This document shows, piece by piece, positions 1-16,435 of a stretch of 16,435 bases of DNA; the stretch's first letter is position 1; each line of letters starts with the position of its first letter. The translations under genes were made by a program, and so were the position numbers. The notes below the pieces were generated by a model. That model was given only the letters and a program-made list of their open reading frames with translations. It did not search any database and was not told the origin of the DNA. This DNA comes from a virus (taxonomy: Duplodnaviria > Heunggongvirae > Uroviricota > Caudoviricetes). The DNA lies in the IMG/VR virus record IMGVR_UViG_2690315742_000009, positions 1 to 16,435 of that record; one strand, given 5' to 3'.

Positions 1-1119
1 TCAAATAACCAACTTAACCCATTCCTGACCTCGAGTATCGTTATAGCGATCGGTGGTTGCCTGGACTTTATGTCCTAGTAATGTTTTTGTATCAATACCC
101 TGTGCACGGTACAGCCGTTCTGATAGAGAGCGTTGTTCATGAAATGTTGGCGGAGTTTTTCCTGCTGGTGGAATTATCCCAGCCAGATCCCGTGCTTTGG
201 CAAAGTAGTCGCTCAGGTTGTCTTTACTCATCGGCTTCGGTTGTTTCTGGTGCCGACTATGGATTAGATATGGACTTAATATTCTGTCTCGGCACCCATC
301 AATAACTTCTTTTAACGTTATCCCAATGGCATCACATCGTAGTGTAAGCGGTAACGCCAGACGCATTCCGGTTTTTCCCTGGGTGATATGCAAGTGTTCG
401 TTCCACACATCTGAAAAACGCATGTGGCAAATGTCATCACGGCGCTGACCAGTAACAATCGCAAGAAGCATTGCGTTACGGATAAAGTGTTTTTCAGGCG
501 TTGCATTGTAAATTTTTTGCCAGTCTTCCATGGTGAGCCTGGCTCTGGTTACTTTAGGGATCGGTTTACGGGTAGCCTCCGGAGGATTCCATCCAGGAGG
601 AACTTCCCCTGCATGCTGTGCTTCTTTATAAATATCAACCCATAATCCACGATTTACTCTCGCTGTGCTGACCATGTCTTTATCCAGCCACTCATCCAGT
701 ATTAATGCAAAGTCTCTTACTTCCAGTTCTTTCAATGGGTGGTTTCCCAGACGGGAAACCAGGTATGCAGCCATTCGGGTTTTTTCTTTGTGAGTTGTAG
801 CTGCAATATCTCCATTTTTCAGTCGCGTGTCCTGTATTTTCAGATATCGATCAACCCATGCCTTTAATCTGATACCCCGACGTTTTGTTGCTGACGGACT
901 TTCATCAATTTTGCGCATGAAATATTCAGCTTCTGCTGCAGCTATTCGCTGATTGGCTGTGGAAGCGATTTTTTCTGCCTTACCTTTGTCTGTTCCGAGT
1001 CCGTGAAATTTTCCAGTCACAGGATTTTTATACTGGTAGTAAACTCTGCCAGTTCTGCGATCAAACTTTTCGTAAAGACCGGCTACGTCAGTGCTGTTTT
1101 TTCGTGGCCTCGGTGACAT
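1..1119 (-). CDS. int: Phage-type tyrosine recombinase (integrase)
   Basis: 372-aa ORF, ATG at 1117-1119 with AGGAG about 12 nt upstream, TGA at 1-3. C-terminal half has the R...H-x-x-R...Y arrangement of tyrosine recombinases (TGQRRDD, HEQRS, TDRY). Excisionase-like gene lies immediately upstream, overlapping by about 30 nt. Confidence 0.85.
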   Translation of the reverse strand: MSPRPRKNSTDVAGLYEKFDRRTGRVYYQYKNPVTGKFHGLGTDKGKAEKIASTANQRIAAAEAEYFMRKIDESPSATKRRGIRLKAWVDRYLKIQDTRLKNGDIAATTHKEKTRMAAYLVSRLGNHPLKELEVRDFALILDEWLDKDMVSTARVNRGLWVDIYKEAQHAGEVPPGWNPPEATRKPIPKVTRARLTMEDWQKIYNATPEKHFIRNAMLLAIVTGQRRDDICHMRFSDVWNEHLHITQGKTGMRLALPLTLRCDAIGITLKEVIDGCRDRILSPYLIHSRHQKQPKPMSKDNLSDYFAKARDLAGIIPPAGKTPPTFHEQRSLSERLYRAQGIDTKTLLGHKVQATTDRYNDTRGQEWVKLVI

Positions 1120-1357
1120 GAGTTAAAATCTCCTTCAGTGCATCATCATCGCCAGTATGAATTTCCGGCGCAATTCCCGTTTCACCAGGCCCAACAAATA
1201 CTGCTCGGCGATCTATCAGCCAACGCCCACGAATTTTTTGTGGCCTTGGAACGATGTATCCTAGTTTTCCGTATTTCACCAGGGTAGTGTTTGTTATTGG
1301 GAGACTGAACCGTTTTGGTTTCCACTCGTCGAGCGTTATCAGGTACTGTTCGCTCAT
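1088..1357 (-). CDS. Excisionase-like small protein (DUF1233-type putative Xis)
   Basis: 89 aa from ATG at 1355-1357 with GGAG 8 nt upstream; the track's longer start is a GTG three codons earlier. Position directly upstream of and overlapping int is the classic xis position. Family assignment is from memory. Confidence 0.6.
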   Translation of the reverse strand: MSEQYLITLDEWKPKRFSLPITNTTLVKYGKLGYIVPRPQKIRGRWLIDRRAVFVGPGETGIAPEIHTGDDDALKEILTHVTEATKKQH

Positions 1358-1418
1358 GGCTATCACTCCGGAACGCGCCAGTTGCAGAATATCAACGACA
1401 ACTGGCGACGGTTGAACA

Positions 1419-3860
1419 TTAAAAATCAGCCTGACTCGGGATCAGTTTTTGCCAGATAACTGAAACGTATTTTGCCTGGTAACGAGCGTCATCAAGTGCA
1501 TTATGGCGCTCACCTTCGAATGGAATAGCCGTTCTGGCATCGAAGTCTATGGCTTTCCCCAGCTCAACGATTGTGCGTACATCGCGATCGTTGTAGTAAC
1601 GCCACGGGCAGGGGATCCCCTGCCGTTCGTATGAACGGCGCAAAATCGTGTTGTCGAAGTTGGCTCCATTTCCCCAGACCTGAACAAAAAATTCACCGGA
1701 GTTTTCGTCGATAAATTCCCGCAATTGTAACAGTGCATCATCTAACGGGATTTCATCGGTCATAATGGCAGATTGCGCTTCGCGTGATTGCTTAAGCCAC
1801 CATTTAATGGTGTCCCGATCAATGACTCCGCCAGCAGTTTCCAGATCGATAGTCTTACTAAATTCCGGTCCCATATCTCCGGTTTGCGGATCGAAAAATA
1901 TTGCACCTATTGAGATGATCGGGGCATCAGGATTTTTTCCCATGGTTTCAAGGTCGATCATTAGATGGTCACACGTCCTGCTGGTGGATGTGATTTCGTG
2001 ATGACCGTTCACCTTAATTGAGTGATCTGCCGTCTCGCCAGTTTTATTATCGCTGGCGTGATGCTGATTGCCGCCAGGGTTCTCCTTGTGTGGATGTTCA
2101 GCGCCTTCCATTTCCTCCGGATCATTTTCCTGAACTTCAACCTGATTCTCTTCATCGAATGTTTCCTGGTATGTTGCGTCGCCCATCACCGCGCCACAAT
2201 CAGGGCAGTTGCCGCCACCGCTCTGACCGCAGGCGGTGCAGACTTTTTCCGGTTCCTGTTGCGCTACTGGTTCGGATTGTTTCGTTTCTGGCTCGTTTTG
2301 TAACGCATTTGGGCTGTTTTGTTCCGCTTTTTGGTCGTTCCGTTCCGATTCATGCTGGTTCTGGTTCACAGAATCGCGAGTCTGGATCCCCTTGACCCAT
2401 TTCGGATCATTAGGGTCGCTAATCCCCTCAACAAATTCACCACGCGATACAGCAAGTAACTTATCGGCGTCAGGCTGGCTGATATTGGCTGCCTGCATAA
2501 TTTTGTTTACTTCGTCAGCGGTGACTTTTACTTGGTTAGCGGAACTCACCTGCGACTGAGCATCCAGCGACTGCGCGTTCTGGCCATGTTCAGTTGTATC
2601 CGGTTCCATTGTTTCAGTTGTTGCCTGTTCACCTGCCATTGCGTCAGATGGTTGTGGTTTTTCTTCTTCTGTTTCACGCTCAGTAACCACCTCGCGGTTA
2701 ATTTCTTCCAGGATATCTTTTTCCGGCGTATGCCGGGCAGCTGTGAGAGTTTCCTTGCTGGGGTTCTCGTGATCAGTTTCCGTCAAATAGGCGTTGATAT
2801 ACCCCTGAAGGCGTCCCGGGTAGTGATAAAATTCAGGGTGTGCGCTTCGGATAAGTGCAAAAATAGCGGCGCGGGAATAGTCCAGAATACCCGGGGTTGC
2901 ACGAAGTGCTGCGGACCATTCTTTGAACGGACTTTCTTTGTTCAGGACTACTTCTTTTGCGCGACGATAAACGCTGCCCGGAATTTCATAAATATTAAAA
3001 TCCATCGGAAGTGTGGCTGCTGCAATCTCCACATCCAGTGTGTCGAGGGTGTGTACTAAATTCGGATTGCGATCGGTTTTGTTCCCACCGCCAGCATTAG
3101 CACCGGAAGCCGTGCGGGTGATGCGTGAAACACGATTTCCTTTCATCCACTCTTTTGTCAGCAGACCCCGATCAGTGTAGTCAGCGTCCAGGTATGCTTC
3201 GAAAAAAGCAGTTATTAGTCCCAGGTCTGAATTACCAGGATTAGGGAAAACTTTGTCAGTGTCACGAACCAGTTTGTGGAGGTCGCGAATCTCCAGCGAG
3301 TCGAGCAGACTGGTTTTATGCGAAATAGCCAGGGCAGTAACAGCCGGTAGTTCTTCAGCCCGTGCAATGTGTAATGCCTGGAGTTCGTCGCGTGAAACGT
3401 GCGTTACTGGTTTTTCGCTGCCGTGTTGAGCAAGCCAACGAATGGGCAGTTCCTGACCGGAGACAGGCAGAAGCATGCTCTCCTCAATCTCAGTCATGTC
3501 TTCGCCGTTGATGTTGGTATTGTCAGTGCTGGCTGGTTTGTCCTGAACAGAGGGGGAAGGGCCGATAAATGTCATTGTGATGCCATCTTTCCCGCCTTTT
3601 TCATAGCGGTTGCAGAATTCAGTATCAAACACGCCTTCTGGCGGAAGGTCGTCAACAACGGGCAAATTGACGCGGACGGGTTTTTTAAAGTCGTCTTCAT
3701 CATAATCGTTGTCATCCATTGCGGTAATGCAGCGGGAGATTGCAACAGATAATTTTTTTGCTGTAGTCCAGTAAAAACCACCTTTAATTCCCAGGCGTTT
3801 TCTTACTTTGTCATTTTTTGCTTCGCAATATAGTGCAAATTCTTCTTTATCAGTGCTCAT
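1419..3860 (-). CDS. Exonuclease: RecE-like N-terminal region fused to a DEDDh (DnaQ-like) 3'-5' exonuclease domain
   Basis: 813-aa ORF, ATG at 3858-3860 with GAGG upstream. Residues about 110-600 closely resemble the non-catalytic N-terminal part of Rac RecE as I recall it (e.g. [71 protein letters not shown]). The C-terminal 200 aa carry DEDDh motifs (DLETMG; [12 protein letters not shown]; [13 protein letters not shown]) in place of the RecE nuclease domain. A long acidic low-complexity linker lies between. Confidence 0.8.
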
Positions 3861-3953: not shown

Positions 3954-4145
3954 TTAAAATCCTGCCGGGATTTCGTTATTATCCTGGTGAATAACTTTAT
4001 CGACCGGATAACAGTTGCCTGGAATTTTCTGTTCGGTTGCTGCTGCCATACATTCCTGCATTGTTCTGTGAACACTGACTGCAATATCAACTGGCTCTCC
4101 GGAAACAAGAAAAACCGTCAGAATAAGTGCAAATACTGGATTCAT
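3954..4145 (-). CDS. ydfD: YdfD-like small lysis protein (63 aa, N-terminal hydrophobic segment)
   Basis: ATG at 4143-4145 overlaps the dicB stop (ATGA). Protein MNPVFALILTVFLVSGEPVDIAVSVHRTMQECMAAATEQKIPGNCYPVDKVIHQDNNEIPAGF matches my memory of Qin YdfD in length and sequence. TAA at 3954-3956. Confidence 0.7.
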   Translation of the reverse strand: MNPVFALILTVFLVSGEPVDIAVSVHRTMQECMAAATEQKIPGNCYPVDKVIHQDNNEIPAGF

Positions 4146-4330
4146 TGTGCACATCCTTTTGGCATCAGACGTAAACGGGCCAGCATTGAAACAATGCATA
4201 CTTTATTTAATAACTCCCGTTCGTGTTTTCTTTTGTTAATGGCATCTTCAGTAAATACAGGATTACTGATAGTGACACCAATTTCAAAACAACCTTCAGA
4301 CGTATTAACGTTTGGTAATAACGTTTTCAT
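4142..4330 (-). CDS. dicB: Cell division inhibitor DicB (62 aa)
   Basis: ATG at 4328-4330 with GAGGG about 7 nt upstream; the track's GTG at 4435 is an upstream extension. Protein MKTLLPNVNTSEGCFEIGVTISNPVFTEDAINKRKHERELLNKVCIVSMLARLRLMPKGCAQ matches recalled DicB of the Qin dicBF operon. Lies immediately downstream of DicF. Confidence 0.75.
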   Translation of the reverse strand: MKTLLPNVNTSEGCFEIGVTISNPVFTEDAINKRKHERELLNKVCIVSMLARLRLMPKGCAQ

Positions 4331-4503: not shown

Positions 4504-4556
4504 AGGGCGGCAGAGCAGTCACGGAGTAAAACTGATACCGCCAAACGTCACCAGAA
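4504..4556 (-). ncRNA. dicF: DicF small RNA (53 nt)
   Basis: Minus strand reads TTTCTGGTGACGTTTGGCGGTATCAGTTTTACTCCGTGACTGCTCTGCCGCCC followed by TTTT, which matches the 53-nt E. coli DicF sequence as I recall it. Contains a GC-rich terminator stem (GGCGG...CCGCC) and sits between a ydfC-like ORF and dicB as in the Qin operon. Confidence 0.8.
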
Positions 4557-4898: not shown

Positions 4899-5117
4899 TT
4901 AACGCTGGTATGTAATCATTCTGGCAATGCTTAATGCCGCTGCTTTTTCCAGCCTGGTGATATCCTGCTCCAGAGCGGACAGATTTTCAGCCTGCTTAGC
5001 CCTGGCTTCATTGGCCCATTTCAGATCCTGCGCTGCATTAATTTTCTGGCGCATCCACTCATAAAGTTCATCATCGGTATAGTCTGGCGCGATGATGACG
5101 GGTTCTCGTTTCTGCAT
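4899..5117 (-). CDS. Small protein in ydfC position of the dicBF operon (72 aa)
   Basis: ATG at 5115-5117 preceded by a strong SD (AAGGAG, 7-nt spacer). Same length and operon position as Qin YdfC; sequence identity not verified. Confidence 0.6.
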   Translation of the reverse strand: MQKREPVIIAPDYTDDELYEWMRQKINAAQDLKWANEARAKQAENLSALEQDITRLEKAAALSIARMITYQR

Positions 5118-5188: not shown

Positions 5189-5545
5189 TTACTCGAGAGG
5201 AAATTGGTTATGAATACAATCAAGTTTTCTTGCCCAGAATGTGGTGGCGAAGTCTTTGACACATCCTTTAAGCCGCAGGGCTCTGACAGTTTCGCGGGAG
5301 CCATCTGCAAAAATTGTGGTCACCTTGTAACTGAAGATGAGTCCTCGCAGTTCGATGACGAAATCGTTGACAATATCTTCGGTGCACTCACCAGAGACTT
5401 TCTGAAATAAAGACGCATACCGCTTAGTTACCGCTCTGATAACTCTTACCTGTCCGGCAATGGCGCTGATGTCAATATAAAGCGCCATTGCTGCTTCTTT
5501 GCCGATCCCGTGATGCCTTCCATTCTGATGTTTGACTTCGCCCAC
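5189..5545 (-). CDS. Hypothetical protein (118 aa from GTG, or 99 aa from ATG at 5488); competing call with the plus-strand ORF 5210..5410
   Basis: Co-directional with the early-left operon. GTG at 5543-5545 preceded by AGAGGA (9 nt). Codon first-position G is about 44 percent in the non-overlapping part 5411-5545. Lies where ydfA/ydfB-type genes would be expected by synteny. It shares exact codon triplets in antisense with the plus-strand zinc-ribbon ORF, so one of the two is probably an artifact. Confidence 0.35.
   Translation of the reverse strand: MGEVKHQNGRHHGIGKEAAMALYIDISAIAGQVRVIRAVTKRYASLFQKVSGECTEDIVNDFVIELRGLIFSYKVTTIFADGSRETVRALRLKGCVKDFATTFWARKLDCIHNQFPLE
5210..5410 (+). CDS. 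Small acidic zinc-ribbon protein (66 aa); competing call with the minus-strand ORF 5189..5545
   Basis: ATG at 5210 with GAGAGG about 10 nt upstream. Two CxxCG knuckles 20 residues apart (CPECGG ... CKNCGH) form a canonical zinc-ribbon signature; acidic C-terminus. Opposite in orientation to the surrounding operon. Confidence 0.4.
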   Translation: MNTIKFSCPECGGEVFDTSFKPQGSDSFAGAICKNCGHLVTEDESSQFDDEIVDNIFGALTRDFLK

Positions 5546-5727
5546 TGAGAAATCCTCTGTTTCCCCTTAACGCCGGGGTAGCGGAACAAAAACCTGCTGC
5601 ATAGTTAAAGTTGAACCCTGCCGTCATGTTCTTACGCCTCGGGCTGGCTACTTAACCCCTGACCACTGCCTGGTAACTCGAAGTATTGCCCTGCATTCTG
5701 TGGGGCGGGGTGGGTTGGTATGTTGTT

Positions 5728-5756
5728 AAGGTAACAAGAGTTACCTTTAGAGTCAA
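5728..5756 (-). promoter_or_regulatory. pL-like early leftward promoter with overlapping repressor operator
   Basis: Minus strand reads TTGACT, 17-nt spacer, TACCTT. An 18-bp perfect palindrome AGGTAACAAGAGTTACCT (plus 5729-5746) overlaps the spacer and -10. Sits just downstream of the repressor gene terminator, facing the dicBF-exo-xis-int operon. Confidence 0.5.
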
Positions 5757-5786
5757 TACAATGTTGCAAAAGGTACATTTGAGGGC

Positions 5787-5811
5787 ATAAAAAACCCGCA
5801 ATGAATGCGGG
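5787..5811 (-). terminator. Rho-independent terminator after the repressor gene
   Basis: Minus strand CCCGCA-TTCAT-TGCGGG followed by TTTTTTAT; 6-bp GC-rich stem immediately after the repressor stop codon (5819-5821). Confidence 0.7.
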
Positions 5812-5818
5812 TTCTGAC

Positions 5819-6493
5819 TCAGTCTAAGTATTGATGTATTTGTGAAACTTTACCTTTAATGGTGTAACCACCATTCAGTTCGATGGGTTTGTAAAGCGGA
5901 TTCAGTGACAACAGATAGATGTTTGGTCCGTCAATCGCAACTTTTTTTAGTGTTACGTTTGGCGTTCCTTCCAATTGGATTAAGATTATTTTTCCCACCA
6001 GTTCTCTAATGTTACTTGAGCATGGTGTGATCAGCACGGTAGATCCGTCGGGGATGGTTGGGAGGCCGTTAGAGTTTGTCATCGCATCTCCCTCAACATG
6101 CAATAAAAAAGAGTTTTCAGCGGTTTTTGTCATGACATCAACCCAATTCTTAATACCAGGAATCTCGGTTACTGGACAACTCATATCCCAATAACCAGCC
6201 TGTTCCCACGTTAAAACGGGCAACCGGGCGATGTTGTCACTAATGTAAGGGTACTGATTCAGACGCAGATCATCGGTTTTATCGTGACAGTCCTTTCCAT
6301 AAAGAATCCATTCAGGAGATTTGGAAAGCAATTTTGACAGTAGATGCAAATTCTCACCGTCAGGTTTTGAAGAGCCATTTTCCCATTTTGTTACGGATAC
6401 ACGAGATATGCCGATTGCTTTCGCAACCTGCTGTTGGGTTAATCCAACGTCTTTTCGACGATTCCGAATACGTTCGCTGATAGTGTTTTTCAT
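5819..6493 (-). CDS. cI-like prophage repressor (N-terminal XRE-type HTH plus C-terminal S24/LexA-like peptidase domain)
   Basis: HTH signature LTQQQVAKAIGISRVSVTKWENG near the N-terminus and a LexA/cI-like C-terminal domain. Preferred start is ATG at 6491-6493 (224 aa, no SD, operator abutting, suggesting a leaderless transcript as for lambda cI). Alternative ATG at 6536; the track's TTG at 6592 would overlap the cro-like start. Confidence 0.85.
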   Translation of the reverse strand: MKNTISERIRNRRKDVGLTQQQVAKAIGISRVSVTKWENGSSKPDGENLHLLSKLLSKSPEWILYGKDCHDKTDDLRLNQYPYISDNIARLPVLTWEQAGYWDMSCPVTEIPGIKNWVDVMTKTAENSFLLHVEGDAMTNSNGLPTIPDGSTVLITPCSSNIRELVGKIILIQLEGTPNVTLKKVAIDGPNIYLLSLNPLYKPIELNGGYTIKGKVSQIHQYLD

Positions 6494-6509
6494 GTAACCA
6501 ATGTTACTA
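6492..6509. promoter_or_regulatory. Operator-like palindrome (ATGTAAC-CAAT-GTTACTA) at the repressor start; PRM-like region
   Basis: Third copy of GTAAC-N4-GTTAC, directly abutting the repressor ATG. A TAACAT -10-like hexamer lies 7 nt upstream of the ATG on the minus strand. Confidence 0.45.
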
Positions 6510-6528
6510 CCAAGTGATGTTGCTATGG

Positions 6529-6558
6529 TTGACATTGCTATGTAACTATTGTTACCCT
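6529..6558 (+). promoter_or_regulatory. pR-like early rightward promoter with overlapping operator
   Basis: TTGACA (6529-6534), 18-nt spacer, TACCCT (6553-6558). Palindrome GTAACTATTGTTAC (6542-6555) overlaps the spacer and -10, mirroring the pL-like architecture. SD AGGAG and the cro-like ATG follow at 6585. Confidence 0.5.
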
Positions 6559-6584: not shown

Positions 6585-6797
6585 ATGTTCAAAGATGATG
6601 TTCTGCGCTATTTCAAAAAAAAGCGACTAGTAGCTGAGGCTCTTGGAATTTCACATGTGGCTGTTGTGCGGTGGAAAGCAGTTATTCCCAAACTTCGCGC
6701 AATGGAACTGGATGAAATTACTAACGGTGAATTGAAATACAACCCAGAACTTTACAAGAAGCAGGATAGCACCTCGAACGAAGGAAAGAATGATTAA
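6585..6797 (+). CDS. Cro/DicC-like small HTH regulator (70 aa)
   Basis: Divergent from the repressor; AGGAG 7 nt upstream of ATG. Sequence pattern (LRYF...LVAEALGISHVAVVRWKA...RAMELDEITNGELKYNPELY) resembles DicC/YdaS-type Cro-like proteins from memory. Stop overlaps the next gene's start by 1 nt. Confidence 0.75.
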   Translation: MFKDDVLRYFKKKRLVAEALGISHVAVVRWKAVIPKLRAMELDEITNGELKYNPELYKKQDSTSNEGKND

Positions 6798-7222
6798 TGA
6801 AAATCAAGCATGAACACATCCGCATGGCGATGAATGCCTGGGCGCATCCGGACGGCGAAAAAGTACCGGCTGCGAAAATTACCAAAGCGTATTTCGAGCT
6901 GGGAATGACGTTCCCGGAACTGTATGACGACAGCCATCCGGAAGCCCTGGCTCGCAATACTCAGAAAATATTCCGCTGGGTGGAGAAAGACACCCCTGAT
7001 GCTGTTGAAAAAATTCAGGCGTTGTTACCAGCGATCGAAAAAGCAATGCCACCTCTGCTGGTGGCCCGAATGCGCAGCCACAGTTCAGCCTATTTTCGGG
7101 AGCTGGTGGAGATGCGGGAACGACTGGTGAGAGACGCTGATGATTTTGTCGCAGTGGCGATCGCTGGTTTCAATCAGATGAATCGTGGTGGTCCGGCGGG
7201 AAATGCCGTGGTGGTGCATTGA
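6797..7222 (+). CDS. cII-position regulator (YdaT-like, 141 aa)
   Basis: Translationally coupled to the cro-like gene (TAATG overlap). Sits between cro-like and replication genes, i.e. the cII position. N-terminus MKIKHEHI resembles Rac YdaT as I recall it; unverified. Confidence 0.55.
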   Translation: MKIKHEHIRMAMNAWAHPDGEKVPAAKITKAYFELGMTFPELYDDSHPEALARNTQKIFRWVEKDTPDAVEKIQALLPAIEKAMPPLLVARMRSHSSAYFRELVEMRERLVRDADDFVAVAIAGFNQMNRGGPAGNAVVVH

Positions 7223-7243: not shown

Positions 7244-8209
7244 ATGAAGCTCCTTTTTGCTGAACGTCCGCTGGTTATAAACACGCAGCTGGCGATGAAA
7301 ATTGGTCTGAACGAAGCCATCGTGTTGCAGCAGCTGCATTACTGGTTGAGAGATACCAGTTCCGGCATGGAATGTGATGGTGTTCGCTGGATTTATAACA
7401 CAACAGAACAATGGCTGGAACAGTTCCCGTTCTGGTCAGAGTCAACGTTAAAACGCGCATTTGCAAGTCTGAAAACGCTGGGGCTTTTGCGTTGCGAAAA
7501 GCTCAACAAATCAAAGCGTGATATGACTAATTTTTACACGATTAATTACGAGAGCGAGCTTTTAGATGGTGGCAAAGTGAACGAATCCATCAGGTCAAAA
7601 TGCGCCGCTCCATCAGGTCAAAATGACACGATGGAAGAGGTCAAAATGGCACGCTCCATTGGTTCAAAACGACCCAATGTCATCGGGTCAAAATGGCCTG
7701 ATGATCTTACAGAGAATACAACAGAGATTACTACAGAGAATAAAAAAACTTCTCGTCCGGAAGCTTCGCAACCGGACATGCAGACGGCTGAACAGGATTT
7801 TTTAAACCGACACCCTGACGCGGTTGTGTTCAGTGCGAAAAAACGCCAGTGGGGCAGCCAGGAAGATTTAGCGTGTGCGCAGTGGATCTGGGGACGAATC
7901 GTGAGTCTTTACGAGCAGGCTGCCAGCGATGATGGCGAAATCATGCGACCGAAAGAACCAAACTGGACTGCATGGGCCAATGATGTGCGCACAATGCGGA
8001 TGCTGGATGGCAGAACTCACAGACAAATTTGCGAAATGTTTGGTCGGGTACAGCGGGATCCATTCTGGGTAAAAAACGTCATGAGCCCGTCAAAGCTTCG
8101 CGAAAAATGGGATGAGCTGGTTATTCGTCTGGGGCGTTCGCCTGTACAGCGTTGCGTGAATCACATTTCTGAACCGGACACCGAAATTCCGCCGGGGTTC
8201 AGGGGGTAA
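7244..8209 (+). CDS. Replication initiator (lambda O-like replisome organizer) with internal origin
   Basis: 321-aa ORF directly upstream of the DnaC-like loader. Five 23-bp-spaced iterons and an AT-rich tract lie inside the coding region, as ori-lambda lies within O. GGAGG sits only about 2 nt from the ATG, so the start is uncertain. Confidence 0.7.
   Translation: MKLLFAERPLVINTQLAMKIGLNEAIVLQQLHYWLRDTSSGMECDGVRWIYNTTEQWLEQFPFWSESTLKRAFASLKTLGLLRCEKLNKSKRDMTNFYTINYESELLDGGKVNESIRSKCAAPSGQNDTMEEVKMARSIGSKRPNVIGSKWPDDLTENTTEITTENKKTSRPEASQPDMQTAEQDFLNRHPDAVVFSAKKRQWGSQEDLACAQWIWGRIVSLYEQAASDDGEIMRPKEPNWTAWANDVRTMRMLDGRTHRQICEMFGRVQRDPFWVKNVMSPSKLREKWDELVIRLGRSPVQRCVNHISEPDTEIPPGFRG
7587..7695. 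repeat. Iteron array: 5 direct repeats of about (CCATCA)GGTCAAAATG with exact 23-bp periodicity; putative replication origin
   Basis: TCAAAA cores at 7596, 7619, 7642, 7665 and 7688. First two copies are identical 16-mers (CCATCAGGTCAAAATG); the others are degenerate (GAGGTCAAAATG, TTGGTTCAAAACG, CGGGTCAAAATG). Confidence 0.7.
7709..7748. repeat. AT-rich tract with three phased ACAGAGA(A/T)TA repeats ending in A7; putative DNA-unwinding element of the origin
   Basis: TACAGAGAATA, ACAGAGATTA and TACAGAGAATAAAAAAA spaced about 11-12 bp apart (helical phasing) immediately downstream of the iterons. Confidence 0.55.
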
Positions 8210-8215: not shown

Positions 8216-8962
8216 ATGAAAAATATTGCGGCAGATGGTGTTCTTGAGCGTATCCGTAAGCTGGCCCCGCAGCATGTAACTGCGGCGTACCGGACAGTGG
8301 ACGAGTGGCGGGAGTGGCAGCTTGCAGAAGGGCGAAAACGTAGCGAGGAGATCAACCGCCAGAATCGCCAGTTACGGGTGGAAAAATTCCTGAATCGTTC
8401 CGGTATCCAGCCGTTGCACCAGAAATGTTCGTTTGCGAATTACCAGGTGCAGAACGACGGACAGCGTCATGCACTCAGCCAGGCGAAGTCCATTGCAGGC
8501 GAACTGATAACCGGGTGCACGAATTTTGTGTTCAGCGGTAAGCCGGGTACCGGAAAGAATCATCTGGCAGCAGCCATTGGCAACCATCTTCTGGCGAAAG
8601 GTCGCAGCGTGATTGTGGTGACGGTGGCGGATGTGATGCTGGCGTTACACGGCAACTACGACAACAAAAACTCAGGCGAAAAATTTTTGCAGGGGTTGTG
8701 TGAAGTTGACCTGCTTATCCTGGATGAAATCGGTATGCAGCGGGATACGCGTAACGAACAGGTCACACTGAACCAGATAGTCGATCGCAGAACGGCCTCG
8801 ATGCACAGCGTCGGGATGCTGACAAACCTGAACCACGCAGCGATGAATACGCTGCTTGGCGAACGCGTGATGGACCGCATGACCATGAACGGTGGTCGCT
8901 GGGTGAATTTTAACTGGGAGAGCTGGCGCCCGAATGTTGGTCAGCCAGGTATTGAAAAGTAA
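8216..8962 (+). CDS. DnaC-like replicative helicase loader (IstB-like AAA+ ATPase)
   Basis: Walker [16 protein letters not shown] and Walker [10 protein letters not shown]; 248 aa; immediately downstream of the O-like gene. Confidence 0.85.
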
Positions 8963-11356: not shown

Positions 11357-11475
11357 TGCAGCGGGTGCTTGAGGCTATCTGTCTCAGGCATGAACACCAA
11401 AAGGCAGATAGAGAAAAGCCCCAGTTAACATTACGCGTCCTGCAAGACGCTTAACATTAATCTGAGGCCATATCT

Positions 11476-11535
11476 ATGCGACACATAGAGATTAGCCTCT
11501 TACGGACCGAAAGGTCAAGGAGAAGCAGGCTATGA
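11476..11535 (+). CDS. Short upstream reading frame coupled to hok (mok-like, 19 codons)
   Basis: ATG at 11476; its TGA overlaps the hok ATG (ATGA). Analogous to mok-dependent translational coupling in hok/sok loci, but much shorter than classical mok. Confidence 0.3.
   Translation: MRHIEISLLRTERSRRSRL
11489..11518 (-). promoter_or_regulatory. Candidate promoter for a Sok-like antisense RNA
   Basis: Minus strand TTGACC (plus 11513-11518), 18-nt spacer, TAATCT (plus 11489-11494). Predicted antisense start near 11482, reading across the start of the upstream coupled frame. Confidence 0.4.
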
Positions 11536-11687
11536 AGCAGCAAAAGGCGATGTTAATCGCCCTGATCGTCATCTGTTTAACCGTCATAGTGACGGCACTG
11601 GTAACGAGGAAAGACCTCTGCGAGGTACGAATCCGAACCGGCCAGACGGAGGTCGCTGTCTTCACAGCTTACGAACCTGAGGAGTAA
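11532..11687 (+). CDS. hokD: Hok/Gef-family type I toxin (51 aa)
   Basis: AAGGAG SD. Protein MKQQKAMLIALIVICLTVIVTALVTRKDLCEVRIRTGQTEVAVFTAYEPEE has a single transmembrane helix plus a conserved Cys-containing periplasmic tail, and matches my memory of HokD (RelF). Confidence 0.85.
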   Translation: MKQQKAMLIALIVICLTVIVTALVTRKDLCEVRIRTGQTEVAVFTAYEPEE

Positions 11688-11755
11688 GAGACCAGGCGGG
11701 GGAGAAATCCCTCGCCACCTCTGATGTGTCAGGCATCCTCAACGCACCCGCACGT

Positions 11756-11783
11756 AACCCGCTTCGGCGGGTTTTGTTTTTTC
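11756..11783 (+). terminator. Rho-independent terminator of the hok transcript
   Basis: AACCCGC-TTCG-GCGGGTT (UUCG tetraloop, 7-bp stem) followed by TTGTTTTTT. Confidence 0.75.
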
Positions 11784-11854
11784 CTGGCATTCTGGTTTAC
11801 AATTCGCACGCCAGCCTGAACAACTGGCACCTGCTGCGCCAGCAGAGACAACCG

Positions 11855-12127
11855 ATGGCGCACAATACCAAATATCACAATTCTGATACCGACCTTGCCA
11901 GCAGGTGCGGGCTGTGTTCTCACGCATTCAAATATGACTGGTATCAGCACGATCCCTGCACTGAAGAACAGGCCGAATGGCTGATTCATAACTACCGCAG
12001 ACGTGGGTATGAGTTTAAGAAAGCCCTTAGCCTCGACTACCGTCACTGGATAATCTACGTCAGGCTCCCTTATTCCGAACGCCCGCCGCGTCCGTCCCGC
12101 ACATTCCAGCAACGCATCTGGAGGTAA
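11855..12127 (+). CDS. Small Cys/His-containing protein in the position of Qin rem (90 aa)
   Basis: ATG at 11855. The track's upstream start at 11726 would run through the hok terminator hairpin, so I truncated it. Contains CGLCSHAFKYDWYQHDPC. GGAGG near its 3' end serves the next gene. Confidence 0.5.
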   Translation: MAHNTKYHNSDTDLASRCGLCSHAFKYDWYQHDPCTEEQAEWLIHNYRRRGYEFKKALSLDYRHWIIYVRLPYSERPPRPSRTFQQRIWR

Positions 12128-12128: not shown

Positions 12129-13184
12129 GTGAGGGTATTAGTGACTCCTGAAATTGCTCACCGTCTGGGGATTGTACTTTTCAGGCCCGGTCCTGATGCG
12201 ATGCCTTTGTTTATGCAGGGGCGTGTACTGGTCGAGCCGGAACCAAAAAGCATGCGCGGTCTGCCGTCCGGGGTCGTTCCTGCCGTTCGCCAGCCGCTGG
12301 CGGAAGACAAATCTCTGCTGCCATTTTTCAGCGATGAGCGGGTGATTCGTGCTGCCGGCGGCGCTGGTGCACTGTCTGACTGGCTACTGCGTCATGTCAA
12401 ATCCTGCCAGTGGCCTCATGGTGACTACCATCACAGTGAAACCGTCATACATCGTTACGGTACCGGCGCGATGGTGTTGTGCTGGCACTGCGACAACCAG
12501 CTGCGTGACCAGACCTCCGAATCACTGGAACATCTGGCTCAACAAAACCTGGCAGCATGGATGATTGACGTCATCGGTCACGCAGTAAGCGGTACGCAGG
12601 AGCGTGAATTATCTCTGGCTGAATTATCCTGGTGGGCAGTCCGCAATCAGGTGGCGGACGCGCTACCGGAAGCGGTATTACGTCGTTCGCTGGGGTTGCG
12701 TGCGGAAAAAATCCGCTCAATGTACCGTGAAAGCGACATCGTACCGGGAGAGCAGACCGCCACCAGCATACTGAAGCAGCGCACAAAAAATCTTGCGCCG
12801 CTGCCTCACGCCCACCAGCAAAACCCGCCACAGGAAAAGACGGTGGTCAGCATTGCTGTTGATCCGGAGTCACCGGCTCAGTATCTCCAGCGCCAGAAAC
12901 CACAACGGGAAGAGATGCCTGTATACACGCGCTGGGTAAAAACGCAGAAATGCATGACGTGCGGTAATCAGGCAGATGATCCGCATCACATCATTGGTCA
13001 TGGACTGGGAGGGATGGGAACAAAGGCTGATGATTTGTTTGTTATTCCGCTGTGCCGTAAATGTCATAACGAACTGCACGCCGGGGTAAAAGATTTTGAA
13101 GAAAAACACGGCAGCCAGCTGTTGTTGCTGATTCGTTTTTTAATGCACGCGAGAAATTCGGGTGTCCTGAAGTGGAAAGCATGA
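12129..13184 (+). CDS. DUF968-type protein with C-terminal HNH-like Cys/His motif (YdfU-like)
   Basis: GTG at 12129 with GGAGG 5 nt upstream. C-terminus CMTCGNQADDPHHIIGHGLGG...CRKCHNELH resembles an HNH/zinc-finger nuclease motif. Upstream of rusA, in the nin-region equivalent. Confidence 0.75.
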   Translation: MRVLVTPEIAHRLGIVLFRPGPDAMPLFMQGRVLVEPEPKSMRGLPSGVVPAVRQPLAEDKSLLPFFSDERVIRAAGGAGALSDWLLRHVKSCQWPHGDYHHSETVIHRYGTGAMVLCWHCDNQLRDQTSESLEHLAQQNLAAWMIDVIGHAVSGTQERELSLAELSWWAVRNQVADALPEAVLRRSLGLRAEKIRSMYRESDIVPGEQTATSILKQRTKNLAPLPHAHQQNPPQEKTVVSIAVDPESPAQYLQRQKPQREEMPVYTRWVKTQKCMTCGNQADDPHHIIGHGLGGMGTKADDLFVIPLCRKCHNELHAGVKDFEEKHGSQLLLLIRFLMHARNSGVLKWKA

Positions 13185-13550
13185 ATGACTGAACGCATAG
13201 AATTTGTTTTGCCTTACCCGCCGACGGTGAATACCTACTGGCGACGTCATGGCAATACGTATTTCATCTCGGAGGCCGGAAAGCGTTATCGCCATGATGT
13301 GGCGCTAATTGTTCGCCAGCAGCGGTTGAAATTAAACCTGTCCGGAAGGCTGACGATAAAGATTATTGCAGAGCCACCGGATAAGCGCCGTCGTGACCTG
13401 GACAATATCCTGAAAGCACCACTGGATGCGCTGACGCATGCCGGACTACTCATAGACGACGAGCAGTTTGATGAAATCAATATTGTGCGCGGTCAGCTCG
13501 TTCCTGGTGGGCGGCTGGGGATAAAAATCACAGAACTGGAGTGCGCATGA
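13185..13550 (+). CDS. rusA: RusA Holliday junction resolvase
   Basis: 121 aa. Conserved RusA signature (PPDKRRRDLDNILKAPLDALTHAGLLIDDEQF ... GGRLGIKITE) aligns with E. coli RusA as I recall it. ATG overlaps the upstream stop. Confidence 0.9.
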   Translation: MTERIEFVLPYPPTVNTYWRRHGNTYFISEAGKRYRHDVALIVRQQRLKLNLSGRLTIKIIAEPPDKRRRDLDNILKAPLDALTHAGLLIDDEQFDEINIVRGQLVPGGRLGIKITELECA

Positions 13551-14236
13551 ATAACCAGTATTTACAGTTTGTGCGTGAGCAGCTCATTATCGCCACCGCT
13601 GATTTGAGTGGGGCAACAAAAGGTCAGCTTGAAGCCTGGCAGGAGAATGCCATGTTTGATACAGGGCGTTACAGGCGTAAAAAAATCCGGTACCGAGATG
13701 AAGTGACTGGAAGAATGATAACGCGGGATAGTCCACCGATACCGGGAAAACAATCACTGGCGAAAGGCTCATCAATTGCTCTGGTAAGTCAGGTTGAGTT
13801 TTCGACATCATCATGGCGACGGGCAGTTCTGTCTCTTGAAGAACATCATAAAGCCTGGTTGTTGTGGTGTTACAGCGGGAGTATTTGTTGGGAATATCAG
13901 ATCGCGATAACACAGTGGGCGTGGAATGAATTTAATACTCAATCCGGTACCAGAAAAATTGCAGGGAAAACGCAGGAACGCCTGAAAAAATTAATCTGGC
14001 TGGCGGCGCAGGCATTAAAAGCAGAACTTTTTGGTGGGGAAGGTTATGAATACCAGGAGCTGGCATTACTGGCGGGAGTGACAACTAAAAACTGGTCCAA
14101 AACATTTACTCGTCACTGGGTTGCAATGAAACACATTTTTCACCGACTTGATAGTGAGGCTTTATTGTTTGTAATGAGAACACGTTCAAAACAAAAGGCG
14201 GCATTTTCAAAGCAAAGTGTTGCAAAAGTAGATTGA
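13547..14236 (+). CDS. Putative late-gene antiterminator (Q-like) by position; function unverified
   Basis: 229 aa from ATG at 13547 (GGAG 7 nt upstream, ATGA overlap with the rusA stop). Sits between rusA and a promoter/terminator pair followed by tRNAs and lysis genes, the canonical Q position. Confidence 0.45.
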   Translation: MNNQYLQFVREQLIIATADLSGATKGQLEAWQENAMFDTGRYRRKKIRYRDEVTGRMITRDSPPIPGKQSLAKGSSIALVSQVEFSTSSWRRAVLSLEEHHKAWLLWCYSGSICWEYQIAITQWAWNEFNTQSGTRKIAGKTQERLKKLIWLAAQALKAELFGGEGYEYQELALLAGVTTKNWSKTFTRHWVAMKHIFHRLDSEALLFVMRTRSKQKAAFSKQSVAKVD

Positions 14237-14430: not shown

Positions 14431-14506
14431 GGCCCTTTAGCTCAGTGGTGAGAGCGAGCGACTCATAATCGCCAGGTCGCTGGTTCAAATCCAGCAAGGG
14501 CCACCA
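14431..14506 (+). tRNA. tRNA with CAU anticodon (Ile2-lysidine type or elongator Met)
   Basis: Hand-folded cloverleaf: acceptor GGCCCTT/AAGGGCC, D-stem GCTC/GAGC, anticodon loop CTCATAA, T-loop TTCAAAT, encoded CCA. Close to E. coli ileX as recalled. Confidence 0.8.
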
Positions 14507-14507
14507 G

Positions 14508-14584
14508 CCGCCACTAGCTCATCAGGAAAGAGCGTCAACCCTTTAAGTTGAGTGTGCGAGGTTCGAGTCCCCGGTGGCGGTCCA
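14508..14584 (+). tRNA. tRNA-like gene with unusual anticodon loop CCTTTAA (nominal anticodon UUU, Lys-type; C at position 33)
   Basis: Cloverleaf folds: acceptor CCGCCAC/GTGGCGG, D-stem GCTC/GAGC, perfect anticodon stem TCAAC/GTTGA, T-loop TTCGAGT, encoded CCA. T-stem has one A-C mismatch and position 33 is C, not the near-universal U. Confidence 0.55.
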
Positions 14585-14586
14585 GT

Positions 14587-14662
<76 letters not shown>

Positions 14663-14665
14663 TAT

Positions 14666-14740
<75 letters not shown>

Positions 14741-14746
14741 GTTAGA

Positions 14747-14870: not shown

Positions 14871-14950
14871 AAGCACTCTGCTTTTATTCCGATTAACTGT
14901 GGGTGTGGTTTGTTGGATAGAGTGCTTTCCTTTCTGTATATATCGTTTCG

Positions 14951-14973
14951 CCCGCTTTTGCGGTTTTTTCTTT
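14951..14973 (+). terminator. Weak terminator-like hairpin with long U-tract upstream of the holin gene
   Basis: CCCGC-TTTT-GCGG followed by TTTTTTCTTTT; preceded by a promoter-like TTGGAT-17/18-(G)TATAT(A) at 14913-14942. Confidence 0.4.
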
Positions 14974-15034
14974 TCAAATCCCTTTCATTTCTCAGTGTAA
15001 AACTACGCCATCCGTTATTTGCGGAGGTGAGGCT

Positions 15035-15250
15035 ATGAAATCCATGGACAAAATTTCAACGGGCATTGCCTACGGCACCTCCGCAGGCAGTGCTGGCTAC
15101 TGGTTTTTACAGTGGCTTGATCAGGTCAGTCCTTCACAGTGGGCTGCGATTGGTGTACTGGGGAGTCTGGTTCTGGGCTTCCTGACTTATCTGACAAATC
15201 TGTACTTCAAAATCAGAGAAGACAAGCGTAAGGCTGCACGGGGAGAGTAA
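15035..15250 (+). CDS. Class II holin, phage 21 S-type pinholin with dual-start motif
   Basis: GGAGGTGAGG SD. N-terminus MKSMDKI gives two in-frame starts (Met1, Met4) as in the S21 antiholin/holin pair; two transmembrane segments; basic C-terminus. Matches S21/EssQ-like sequence as recalled. Confidence 0.85.
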
Positions 15251-15254
15251 TTCA

Positions 15255-15605
15255 ATGACTCAAAACTATGAACTGATTGTGAAAGGAATCCGCAATTTTG
15301 AGAATAAAGTTACGGTAACTTTAGCGTTACGGGACAAAAAAGGCTTTGACGGTGAAATTTTTGACCTGGACATCTCGCTGGACCGTGTTGAAGGTGCCGC
15401 GCTGGAGTTTTATGAGGCAGCAGCCAGAAGGAGCATCAGACAGGTCTTCCTGGATGTTGCTGCCGGGTTATGTGAAGGGGATGAGCAGTCGCCGGAAAAG
15501 CGCCCCGTAATTTTAGATGCGCAGAATGTTTGGATAACCTACAAAGGAAAGCTACCAGGAAGAATTACTGGTTCTCTGAAGACTCCTCCGGAATCACAAC
15601 CTTAA
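15255..15605 (+). CDS. Hypothetical cytoplasmic protein (116 aa) between holin and endolysin
   Basis: GGGGAGAG SD 8 nt upstream of ATG, 4 nt after the holin stop. No transmembrane or signal sequence; no recognisable motif. Confidence 0.6.
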   Translation: MTQNYELIVKGIRNFENKVTVTLALRDKKGFDGEIFDLDISLDRVEGAALEFYEAAARRSIRQVFLDVAAGLCEGDEQSPEKRPVILDAQNVWITYKGKLPGRITGSLKTPPESQP

Positions 15606-15668
15606 GTCACTGACCGGAACAGATAAACCTGTCCGTGGGCAGAAACCGATAAATCCTGATAAATATCC

Positions 15669-16202
15669 ATGAACGCAAAAATCAGATACGGCCTGTCGGC
15701 TGCCGTTCTGGCACTGATTGCCGTCGGTGCGCCCGCGCCTGATATTCTCGACCAGTTTCTGGATGAAAAAGAAGGTAACCACACAACGGCATACCGCGAT
15801 GGGTCCGGCATCTGGACCATCTGTCGGGGTGCCACGATGGTGGATGGAAAACCCGTTTTTCCCGGTATGAAACTGTCGAAGGAAAAATGCGACCAGGTCA
15901 ACGCCATTGAGCGTGATAAGGCGCTGGCATGGGTGGAGCGCAATATTAAAGTACCACTGACCGAGCCACAAAAAGCCGGTATCGCGTCATTTTGTCCCTA
16001 TAACATTGGCCCCGGTAAGTGTTTTCCGTCGACGTTTTATAAGCGGCTGAATGCTGGTGATCGTAAAGGTGCATGCGAGGCGATTCGCTGGTGGATAAAA
16101 GATGGTGGGCGCGATTGCCGCATACGTTCAAATAACTGCTATGGACAGGTTATTCGTCGTGACCAGGAAAGCGCATTAGCCTGTTGGGGGATAGATCAGT
16201 GA
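15669..16202 (+). CDS. SAR-type endolysin (T4-lysozyme-like muramidase with N-terminal signal-anchor-release segment)
   Basis: N-terminal weakly hydrophobic Gly/Ala-rich segment ([17 protein letters not shown]) followed by an E...D...T catalytic arrangement ([20 protein letters not shown]); 177 aa, typical of phage 21 R-type SAR endolysins. Confidence 0.85.
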
Positions 16203-16435
16203 GCAGAGTCGCCGCGATTATTTATGCTCTGGTTATCTGCATCATCGTCTGCCTGTCGTGGGCGGTCAATCATTACCGTGATAACGCCATCGCCTACAAA
16301 GAACAGCGTGATAAAAAAGTCAGTGAGCTGAAGCTGGCGATCGCCACCATCGCTGACATGCAGCAGCGTCAGCGTGATGTTGCTGCGCTCGATGCAAAGT
16401 ACTCGAGAGAATTAGCCAATGCGCAAGCTGAAAAT
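16199..16435 (+). CDS. Rz-like i-spanin (N-terminal part; continues beyond the window)
   Basis: GTG at 16199 overlapping the endolysin stop. N-terminal transmembrane segment ([18 protein letters not shown]) followed by a charged, coiled-coil-like region. No stop within the window. Confidence 0.6.

Follow-up and report, generated by a model that had tools for sequence, protein, structure and literature searches.

The stretch of DNA analysed here, referred to as the window, comprises positions 1 to 16,435 of the IMG/VR virus record IMGVR_UViG_2690315742_000009, with position 1 at the stop codon of an integrase gene and position 16435 inside the gene for the spanin Rz. Its gene map was assembled from the list of open reading frames (ORFs), the PGAP annotation of a relative, the prophage of Escherichia coli TUM9757, and searches with Pfam, PHROGs, Rfam and ARAGORN. 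About 27 genes were found, all of which are open and of full length when compared with their relatives, and neither insertion sequence (IS) elements nor pseudogenes were detected in the 16,435 bp. The ORF map, Pfam, PHROGs and the genes called by PGAP in TUM9757, which is 98% identical, agree on a lambda-like order of modules, namely int-xis-recombination, divergent repressor and cro genes, a gene at the CII position, replication, a nin-like region, Q and lysis. The window thus very probably covers the genes for integration, the early-left operon, immunity, replication, the nin-like region, Q and lysis in a temperate lambdoid prophage of E. coli, which belongs to the same part of the lambdoid pool as Rac, Qin, Tritos and mEp460. 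Its resemblance to Rac and Qin would reflect common ancestry in a pool of modules that recombine freely. Because the window starts at the int stop codon and ends in Rz, the attachment (att) sites, attL among them, and the structural genes lie outside it.

The immunity repressor is the only feature of the window that might repay experiment. Its gene (5819..6535, minus strand) is annotated with 238 codons and specifies a DicA-like helix-turn-helix (HTH) domain joined to an S24 domain (Pfam HTH_3 and Peptidase_S24), the HTH being 57% identical to that of DicA. A copy of the operator motif described below (6494-6507) sits within the first 14 annotated codons. For this reason, and because a start at Met15 has been called in two related loci (L020 and L026), the real start is probably Met15 (6493), which gives a protein of 224 amino acids and a control region of 91 bp. 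In a residue alignment to full-length lambda CI (PDB 3BDN), the sequence VEGDAMT of the repressor faces VEGNSMT, and Ala151 (GCG, 6083-6085, minus strand) corresponds to Ser149 of lambda CI. Ala151 therefore occupies the place of the Ser nucleophile, and the G-(D/N/E)-S-M motif of this repressor reads GDAM. The cleavage site is kept, with Ala113-Gly114 of a QAG sequence aligned to Ala111-Gly112 of lambda CI, and so is the general-base Lys, with Lys197/198 of TLKKV aligned to Lys192 of lambda CI.

The Ala151 allele was also found in the TUM9757 prophage and in three other loci. A stretch of 69 nucleotides that spans the Ala codon recurs unchanged in 681 of the 5,426 complete E. coli genomes, which means that about one in eight of these genomes carries this exact allele. 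Ser is the common residue among the homologues at large, as it is found in 17 of the 21 aligned homologue clusters. The two residues are interspersed among the closer clusters, with Ala in those at 98%, 89% and 68% identity and Ser in those at 87% and 66%, and of the 16 more distant clusters 15 have Ser and one is without the motif altogether.

It is established that LexA and lambda CI are no longer cleaved once their nucleophile has been replaced. Since Ala replaces the Ser nucleophile here, we predict by analogy with these two proteins that the prophage is blind to the SOS response, in the sense that lysogeny would not be released by RecA-stimulated self-cleavage. Neither the window nor the entire TUM9757 prophage contains a perfect LexA box (CTGT-N8-ACAG), sites with one mismatch were fewer than expected by chance in both, and the scan for such boxes gave no evidence of a LexA-controlled antirepressor in either. 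The induction assay with mitomycin C that had been proposed from the sequence alone may consequently mislead, as it could be negative even for an intact phage whose repressor has no self-cleavage nucleophile. A literature search for prophage repressors of the S24 type that naturally lack the nucleophile returned nothing relevant, which is not evidence that they are unreported. As a tentative proposal, the repressor may be a naturally uninducible CI-like protein which, together with the relatives that have Ser and with short repressors of the DicA type (132-139 amino acids) found at the same position, might mark a widespread path from cleavable through catalytically dead to truncated repressors, and thereby an uncoupling from the SOS response. 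If this were true, lambdoid prophages would be induced, if at all, by some RecA-independent signal. A nucleophile-less allele as common as this one affects predictions of inducibility that are drawn from the labels 'LexA family protein' or 'S24 peptidase', and it also bears on the reading of induction screens with mitomycin C or ciprofloxacin.

The putative operators of the immunity region were recognised by a motif scan. The palindrome GTAAC-N4-GTTAC occurs without mismatch at three sites of the window, and the number rises to five when one mismatch is allowed, as compared to 0.28 expected. One perfect copy (5731..5744) is a candidate left operator, and the other two (6494-6507 and 6542-6555, within 6494..6555) are candidate right operators between the repressor gene and cro, spaced by 48 bp from centre to centre. 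The palindrome occurs in exactly 4 of 28 loci, namely those with this repressor, each of which has three copies at equivalent positions; it is absent from the other 24 of these loci and from Qin. The three palindromes are therefore best regarded as candidate operators common to the left and right early control regions. In that case the element would be heteroimmune to Qin. Directly after the repressor gene lies a hairpin followed by a run of T residues that resembles an intrinsic terminator (5785..5812, minus strand), which reads GAACCCGCATTCATTGCGGGTTTTTT.

To the right of the candidate operators, on the plus strand, lie a gene for a Cro-like regulator of 70 amino acids (6585..6797) and a gene for a YdaT-family regulator of 141 amino acids at the CII position (6797..7222). 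The sequence-only reading of this stretch had likened the two to ydaS and ydaT of Rac. This view is supported, at the level of the family, for the second gene, the product of which matches Pfam YdaT_toxin and phrog_163 ('CII-like transcriptional activator') and is 33% identical to Rac YdaT. It is not supported for the first, since the Cro-like protein matches Pfam P22_Cro with 59.5 bits, scores only 18.6 bits against YdaS_toxin, below the cutoff of 30, has 39% amino acid identity to DicC of Qin, and gave no tblastn match to Rac ydaS.

The left end of the window holds the integration arm, all of it on the minus strand. The integrase (1..1119; 372 amino acids) is a lambda-type tyrosine recombinase with an arm-binding domain (Pfam Arm-DNA-bind_1 and Phage_integrase). 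It has 47% amino acid identity to IntE of e14, no tblastn match to IntR or IntQ of the K-12 relics, and adjoins potC in every fetched relative that has it. The excisionase (1088..1357; 89 amino acids) is only just above the cutoff of the Pfam Exc family (23.2 bits, cutoff 23), and the identical gene of TUM9757 is called 'excisionase' by PGAP; the 3' end of xis overlaps the start of int by 32 nucleotides.

The large exonuclease that precedes xis (1419..3860, minus strand; 813 amino acids) is a chimera, as judged from its sequence. Pfam finds Exonuc_VIII at residues 57-189 and an Rv2179c-like domain at residues 632-803. Residues 58-615 are 59% identical to residues 50-591 of RecE, and the alignment stops there, at a RecE residue just ahead of the PD-(D/E)XK nuclease domain of that protein. 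Residues 270-812 are 71% identical to the exonuclease of the Tritos/YdfE type, with which the middle and the C-terminal part are thus held in common. The DEDDh motifs DxE, D and HxxxxD are visible by inspection of the C-terminus; the sole match in a PDB sequence search was 8KEL, a DEDD-type exodeoxyribonuclease, and no RecE nuclease chain was matched in that search. The RecE C-terminal PD-(D/E)XK 5'-3' domain is accordingly absent by Pfam, by PDB sequence search and by the RecE alignment, and in its place the protein would have a DEDDh (DnaQ/Rv2179c-like) 3'-5' domain fused to a RecE-type N-terminus and middle. A recombination breakpoint falls inside the gene at 2530/2531. Neither tblastn nor Pfam detected recT in the window, and xis comes 61 nucleotides after the exonuclease gene. 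The proposed likeness to Rac recE is therefore true of the N-terminal and middle parts of the protein and untrue of its nuclease domain and of the missing partner, and the 813-residue exonuclease should not carry the annotation exonuclease VIII or RecET. In a 2025 survey of lambdoid recombination modules, the 'Tritos' type is a nuclease without an annealing protein, the Rec module of Tritos being classed as 'nuclease only', and DnaQ-like 3'-5' nucleases are reported in such modules (PMC12315714).

Two further groups of genes resemble Qin. The first is part of the early-left operon and comprises, on the minus strand, a YdfD-like protein (3954..4145; 63 amino acids; Pfam DUF1482; 89% identical to Qin YdfD), the cell-division inhibitor DicB (4142..4330; 62 amino acids; Pfam DicB, E=5e-40; 97% identical to Qin DicB), the small RNA DicF (4505..4556; Rfam RF00039, 76.7 bits over its full length, the score that is also obtained for K-12 Qin) and a YdfC homologue (4899..5117; 72 amino acids; phrog_1744; 97% identical to Qin YdfC). 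The block from ydfC through DicF and dicB to ydfD amounts to 1,249 bp at 96% DNA identity to Qin, and the start of ydfC at 5117 coincides with a recombination breakpoint, at which 16 alignments end.

The second group surrounds the type I toxin-antitoxin locus hok/sok (11363..11783, plus strand), which consists of a sok region (11363-11534; Rfam RF01794, 106.7 bits over its full length), hok (11532-11687) and a terminator hairpin (11756-11783). Hok belongs to Pfam HOK_GEF (PF01848) and is 100% identical to HokD of K-12. Similarity to K-12 Qin starts only at 11518, 14 nucleotides before hok; relBE abuts hokD in Qin, and Rfam finds no sok there. Since the sok/mok regulatory region is intact here and missing in K-12 Qin, the window holds the undisturbed form of the hokD locus. 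The slot after the hok terminator (11775-11848) holds variable cargo: it is empty in the window, filled by rem in Qin, and occupied in TUM9757, as in many relatives, by a gene of 130 codons. A cluster of 34 alignment ends falls at 11757-11775. The next gene (11849..12127, plus strand; 92 codons; function unassigned) belongs to phrog_1212 and had been read as standing in the position of rem. It is not rem. It is 75% identical to the Qin ORF that lies between rem and ydfU, and the 422 bp of Qin that include rem have been replaced by 56 bp in the window. Also on the plus strand, it is followed by a DUF968/HNH-like protein that is homologous to YdfU (12129..13184; 351 amino acids; Pfam DUF968 and HNHc_6; 76% identical to Qin YdfU) and by a RusA Holliday-junction resolvase (13185..13550; 121 amino acids; Pfam RusA; 41% identical to RusA of DLP12).

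The late part of the window begins with the Q antiterminator (13547..14236, plus strand; 229 amino acids; Pfam Phage_antiter_Q, E=2e-89), which has no match to the K-12 Q homologues ydfT and quuD and returned nothing in a PDB sequence search. A promoter scan placed a candidate late promoter, TTGCAA-17-TATATT, at the end of Q (14220-14248, plus strand), and a strong terminator hairpin with a T-run was read from the sequence further on (14300-14326, plus strand); together they may form a pR'/tR'-like unit. Four transfer RNA (tRNA) genes with the anticodons CAU, UUU (Lys), UGU (Thr) and UCC (Gly) follow (14431..14740, plus strand; ARAGORN and Rfam). The tRNA with the anticodon CAU is called Met by ARAGORN, and its TUM9757 homologue is called tRNA-Ile by PGAP. 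The cluster is placed between Q and the holin gene, where Shiga toxin (Stx) phages carry tRNAs and stx.

The lysis genes, again on the plus strand, start with a class II holin of the phage 21 type, which is pinholin-like (15035..15250; 71 amino acids; Pfam Phage_holin_2_1, PF04971, E=1e-35, covering positions 1-63 of 64). Its N-terminus, MKSMDK, offers two possible starts, Met1 and Met4, as in the two-start motif of S21, and it is 87% identical to EssD of DLP12 and 82% to EssQ of Qin. A YdfR-family protein (15255..15605; 116 amino acids; Pfam DUF1327; 80% identical to YdfR over 74 residues) and an endolysin of the T4-lysozyme family (15669..16202; 177 amino acids; Pfam Phage_lysozyme; 94% identical to RrrQ of Qin) come next. 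By inspection, the endolysin has a Gly/Ala-rich hydrophobic N-terminus that resembles a signal-anchor-release (SAR) segment, and an E-8-D-5-T triad. The last gene is that for Rz (16199..16435; Pfam Phage_lysis; 79-80% identical to RzpD and RzpR), of which the first 79 codons precede the end of the window. In relatives Rz1 starts about 217 nucleotides past the endolysin stop codon, that is, at or beyond the window edge. The cassette had been described as full; this is correct for the holin and the endolysin but not for the spanin genes. It shares with the lysis system of phage 21 the holin, which matches the Pfam model 'Bacteriophage P21 holin S' over its full length and has the MKSM two-start motif; the Gly/Ala-rich N-terminus and E-8-D-5-T triad of the endolysin are, by inspection, consistent with such a system. 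It differs in having the DUF1327 gene (ydfR) between holin and endolysin, and in that its spanin genes are cut by the window end.

We compared the window with the K-12 relics Rac, Qin, DLP12 and e14, using blastn for the DNA shares of the first three and tblastn for proteins. Blastn aligned 17.8% of the window to Rac, 22.8% to Qin, 2.8% to DLP12 and 39.8% to any of the three, leaving 60% without a counterpart in them. The remainder, for which the K-12 relics offer no nucleotide match, comprises int-xis, that part of the exonuclease gene which encodes the catalytic domain, the genes for immunity and for O, the block from Ea22 to orf171, RusA, Q and the tRNAs. The sequence-only reading had proposed a mosaic of Rac-like and Qin-like modules. 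Interleaved blocks of both kinds are indeed present, but they account for only about 40% of the DNA. A likeness to Qin was confirmed for DicB, YdfD, YdfC, Hok, the DUF968 protein, the lysozyme and the holin by protein identity and for DicF by Rfam. On the side of Rac, the helicase loader YdaV (81%) and the DUF1627 protein YdaW (94%) can be added to the exonuclease and YdaT.

These blocks might suggest that Rac and Qin, or intact ancestors of the two, recombined directly to give the element, with the N-terminal part of RecE, ydaV and ydaW stemming from the one, and dicBF, hok, ydfU and rrrQ from the other. We consider this highly improbable. The identities of the blocks range from 75% to 98%, which implies differing histories; the integrase resembles that of e14, DLP12 is the nearer relic for RusA and the holin, and no match to any of the four relics was obtained for Q or, save for its last 19 residues, for O. 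In addition, dozens of other combinations of modules exist in the population. A Rac-Qin hybrid is effectively refuted by the unmatched 60% and the uneven identities.

The differences from each relic were also recorded. Shared with Qin are the dicB/DicF/ydfD/ydfC block, hokD, the 92-codon ORF, ydfU, the holin gene, ydfR and rrrQ. Qin differs in that its DicA has no S24 domain, its operators are others, it has no sok, its int and exonuclease genes are disrupted by IS2, it is without replication genes, and it carries relBE, rem, cspB/F/I and a Q of the ydfT type; blastn and tblastn comparisons with Qin found no match to ydfT, relBE, rem or the csp genes in the window. The window shares with Rac the N-terminal and middle parts of RecE, YdaV, YdaW and YdaT, and the order of repressor, cro-position gene, ydaT and replication genes. 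Rac differs in having the RecE PD-(D/E)XK domain and RecT, RalR/RalA, KilR, SieB, RacR, YdaS, IntR at ttcA and a YdaU of the DUF1376 type, none of which is in the window. RacR, YdaS and IntR had no match in the window, and the relatives are integrated at potC/potB and not at ttcA. It had further been held that the element, unlike both relics, retains int, xis, an S24 repressor, replication genes and a lysis cassette. This is right insofar as Qin has no replication genes and DicA no S24 domain, but Rac keeps intR, xisR, ydaU and ydaV, and Qin keeps essQ-ydfR-rrrQ-rzpQ/rzoQ. The locus does show what has been lost from the K-12 relics, for example a complete hok/sok locus; relatives such as Tritos add to this a YdfE-type exonuclease that is not interrupted.

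A wider view of the mosaicism was obtained by megablast against the 5,426 complete E. coli genomes. All of them match some part of the window, and one, TUM9757, covers at least 80% of it. In 22 related loci, differing parts of the window recur at 82-99.9% identity, and the whole of it is matched at high identity by none of them. The best-matching locus changes along the window, being L013 for 1-5117 (99.8%), L025 for 5118-5559 (98.5%), L031 for 5560-10380 (99.9%), L001 for 10381-11775 (99.5%), L025/L026 for 11757-14300 (about 97%) and L001 again for 14301-16435 (97.6%). Breakpoints cluster at gene ends (3856-3869, 5117, 6791, 7222, 11241, 11775, 13519 and 14741), so that the ends of alignments pile up at the starts of the exonuclease gene and ydfC, at the cro/ydaT junction, at the stop codons of ydaT and orf171, at the hok terminator and at the ends of rusA and the tRNA cluster. 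Such a pattern is classical for lambdoid phages. Single proteins behave in the same way. The exact exonuclease protein was found in 213 collection blocks, and in all six of the places shown it belongs to an int-xis-exonuclease arm adjoining potC, to the right of which the immunity, replication and Q modules differ among these places. The exact Q protein occurs in 1,513 collection blocks with varied neighbours. The exact O protein occurs in 397, and in one of the four places shown it belongs to a prophage (L030) that has the same O-P module with a different integrase, a different site and a different recombination arm, which is a true RecT arm. The window is therefore better described as belonging to one of many lambdoid prophages of E. 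coli that form a large pool, in which modules are exchanged at the boundaries of genes or domains and of which Rac and Qin are decayed members.

Another possibility is that the window might simply be one well-characterised phage. Two GenBank records, vB_EcoS-640R1 and vB_EcoS-813R8, cover 64% of it at 96% identity. However, these records come from work on prophages within genomes of carbapenemase-producing clinical isolates and not on isolated virions (bioRxiv 10.1101/2022.06.29.498070). The isolated phages Tritos, mEp460_ev081, HannyBb and PhiR42_1 cover only 34-40%, and none of 50,697 phage records covers 80% or more of the window. That a single known phage lies here is thus very hard to maintain, and the earlier view that the window is a mosaic rather than such a phage is upheld.

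The closest full-length relative is the prophage of TUM9757 (NZ_CP128931.1, about 1,884,787-1,924,933), which has a length of approximately 40.4 kb, lies between potC and potB, and contains 93% of the window at 98.3% identity. The two have in common int, xis, the exonuclease gene, dicBF, the repressor with Ala151, cro, ydaT, O, P, DUF1627, Ea22, hok, DUF968, RusA, the tRNAs and the lysis genes. The TUM9757 prophage differs in having ydfA and ydfB in place of a 99-codon gene (5118-5559), an extra 130-codon gene after hok, and another, shorter Q (13520-14300 unaligned), and its DUF968-RusA block is only 91% identical. Its late genes encode terminase, portal, an HK97-type protease and capsid, tail, tape-measure, J, Lom and tail-fibre proteins, after which potB follows. 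The only repeat that links its two junction regions is the 14-bp sequence CACCTTCTTATTCA, which is a weak candidate for the att core.

The second informative relative is Tritos (OV696610; prophage 3 of the adherent-invasive E. coli (AIEC) strain LF82). Tritos, grouped here with phages of the mEp460/Ev081 type, has the same early order, with int, xis, a large DEDD-ended exonuclease without an annealing partner, ydfD, dicB, DicF, ydfC and repressor/cro, and further to the right a YdaT-type gene, hokD, DUF968, Q, an S21-type holin gene, ydfR and an endolysin gene. The gene order of Tritos is that of Qin. Only 34% of the window aligns to it, at 92.5% identity, and it differs in its integrase, in the YdfE-type N-terminus of its exonuclease, of which the first 255 residues are 99% identical to the ydfE fragment of K-12 Qin, in its repressor of 139 amino acids without an S24 domain, in its replication module and Q, and in having cold-shock genes of the Qin type. 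In LF82, Tritos makes virions spontaneously and forms plaques on MG1655, and neither ciprofloxacin nor trimethoprim induced it (PMC9928086).

In view of these relatives, the suggestion that the window represents an intact relative of the defective K-12 prophages is plausible, given its open genes and the full set of late genes in TUM9757. It is a sound idea but not a new one, as such a relative is already documented by Tritos. An opposing explanation is that this particular copy is grounded, like Rac and Qin, makes no phage, and is kept for dicBF, hok/sok and the tRNAs. The repressor without its self-cleavage nucleophile, the lack of a LexA-controlled antirepressor signature in TUM9757, and the fact that the late genes of the window's own element are not seen, the window ending in Rz, would all be in line with this explanation, as would head-gene deletions in some relatives and the description of dicBF-carrying CP-933 prophages of O157 as defective (PMC5069750). 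Nevertheless, we regard it as unlikely, though not negligibly so. The roughly 27 genes of the window are open and of full length, TUM9757 has the complete structural set and both junctions, and Tritos gives virions and plaques although it has no S24 domain at all. Because Tritos does so, an uncleavable repressor by itself does not mean a dead phage.

Our preferred reading is that the window holds the early and lysis genes of a mosaic lambdoid prophage of a common type, and that these genes are ordinary and to all appearances undamaged. Gene content and order, the boundaries of modules and their distribution in the population are established here; the mechanism that follows is deduced. Int and Xis would carry out site-specific integration and excision. 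The repressor and Cro would act on the three GTAAC-N4-GTTAC operators and thereby control a rightward operon, with cro, the CII-like ydaT, the genes for the O-like initiator and the DnaC-like loader, accessory genes, hok/sok, DUF968, rusA and Q, and a leftward operon, with small ORFs, ydfC, DicF, dicB, ydfD, the exonuclease gene, xis and int. Q would antiterminate the late transcript across the terminator, the four tRNA genes and the phage-21-type lysis cassette of pinholin, SAR endolysin and spanin.

It should be noted that several points weigh against this reading. Some relatives are degraded: in L026, which has the same repressor allele, the portal-to-capsid and head-completion genes are missing at 15912-16709, where the gene for tail assembly protein T comes straight after that for terminase. 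The present copy is itself presumed and not proven to be intact, as look-ups with the exact exonuclease, Q and O proteins yielded relatives with other combinations of modules and not its own flanks and late genes. A promoter consensus scan gave no more promoter-like sites than were found in shuffled sequences, and the operator and pR'/tR' assignments were inferred from the sequence. Lastly, the predicted non-inducibility is borrowed from nucleophile substitutions in LexA and lambda CI. A terminator consensus scan of the window likewise showed no excess over shuffles, and only hairpins at gene ends were retained. As originally stated, the finding of mosaicism adds little, since lambdoid prophages with Rac and Qin modules are abundant in E. 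coli and Tritos, a working Qin-like phage, has been published; the useful outcome lies in the corrections.

The remaining genes can be dealt with briefly. In the early-left operon, a segment of 442 bp (5118-5559) stands in for the ydfA and ydfB genes of Qin, Tritos and TUM9757. It is missing from TUM9757 and Qin and present in L012, L020, L021 and L024-L026. It contains a gene for a protein of 99 amino acids with unassigned function (5189..5488, minus strand; phrog_21318, E=7e-66). This gene, which is called in relatives, replaces two earlier candidates, 'orf50' (5158-5310) and 'DUF1391' (5472-5627), neither of which has a Pfam match. A possible ORF of 48 codons precedes it at the head of the operon (5632..5778, minus strand) and is doubtful as a gene; phrog_19140 covers its residues 19-48, and over 27 residues it is 96% identical to a part of Rac, between ydaG and racR, in which no gene is annotated.

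To the right of ydaT, on the plus strand, lie the replication genes for an O-like initiator (7244..8209; 321 amino acids; phrog_391, 'replication initiation O-like', E=1e-95), of which only the last 19 residues match Rac, and for the DnaC/IstB-like helicase loader that is homologous to YdaV (8216..8962; 248 amino acids; Pfam IstB_IS21 and Bac_DnaA). These are followed on the same strand by the DUF1627 gene (8983-9726; 247 amino acids; Pfam DUF1627), whose identity to Rac YdaW refers to the 151 residues of YdaW that survive, and by an Ea22-like gene (9713-10282; 189 amino acids; Pfam Ead_Ea22) that overlaps it by 14 nucleotides. The nin-like region, also on the plus strand, consists of a DUF7167 gene (10378-10560; Pfam DUF7167), a gene of 58 codons (orf58; 10553-10729) and one of 171 codons (orf171; 10726-11241), with phrog_519 and phrog_660 as the PHROG matches among these three genes.

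Many of these genes are closely packed. Among the 25 co-directional junctions of credible genes, eight overlap in any way: three are ATGA junctions (dicB>ydfD, orf58>orf171 and rusA>Q), one is a TAATG junction with an overlap of one base (cro>ydaT), one is a GTGA junction (lys>Rz), and three are longer overlaps (xis/int with 32 nucleotides, DUF1627/ea22 with 14 and DUF7167/orf58 with 8). Four further junctions abut within 0-6 nucleotides. The earlier count of at least eight ATGA or TAATG overlaps was thus too high, as only four are true ones, or five if GTGA is included. The tight translational coupling that was deduced from it is reasonable but generic, the density of overlaps being ordinary for phage operons; in compact operons of phages and bacteria, an overlap at roughly one co-directional junction in three is usual. 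An ORF of 78 codons (14802-15038) that would form an ATGA junction with the holin start has no Pfam or PHROG family, is called in no relative, and is probably not a gene.

Two further observations concern the related loci. In L021 (GCA_046581045.1, CP165319.1), positions 15149-20690 hold a gene for the small terminase followed by a second integrase gene, two AlpA-like genes, Bro-N, DUF4222 and a DUF927 primase-like gene. This insert, located where the large terminase gene would be expected, looks like a satellite or a P4-like element in the packaging region. The loci L029-L032 have the same immunity and replication module as the window. Where the window has its tRNA cluster, downstream of Q, they hold cargo at about 17560-19906, which comprises a PemK-family toxin in L029-L031 or an ORF6N protein in L032, together with an N6/N4 DNA methyltransferase, and these four loci have a different lysis cassette, the first gene of which belongs to the family Phage_holin_8.

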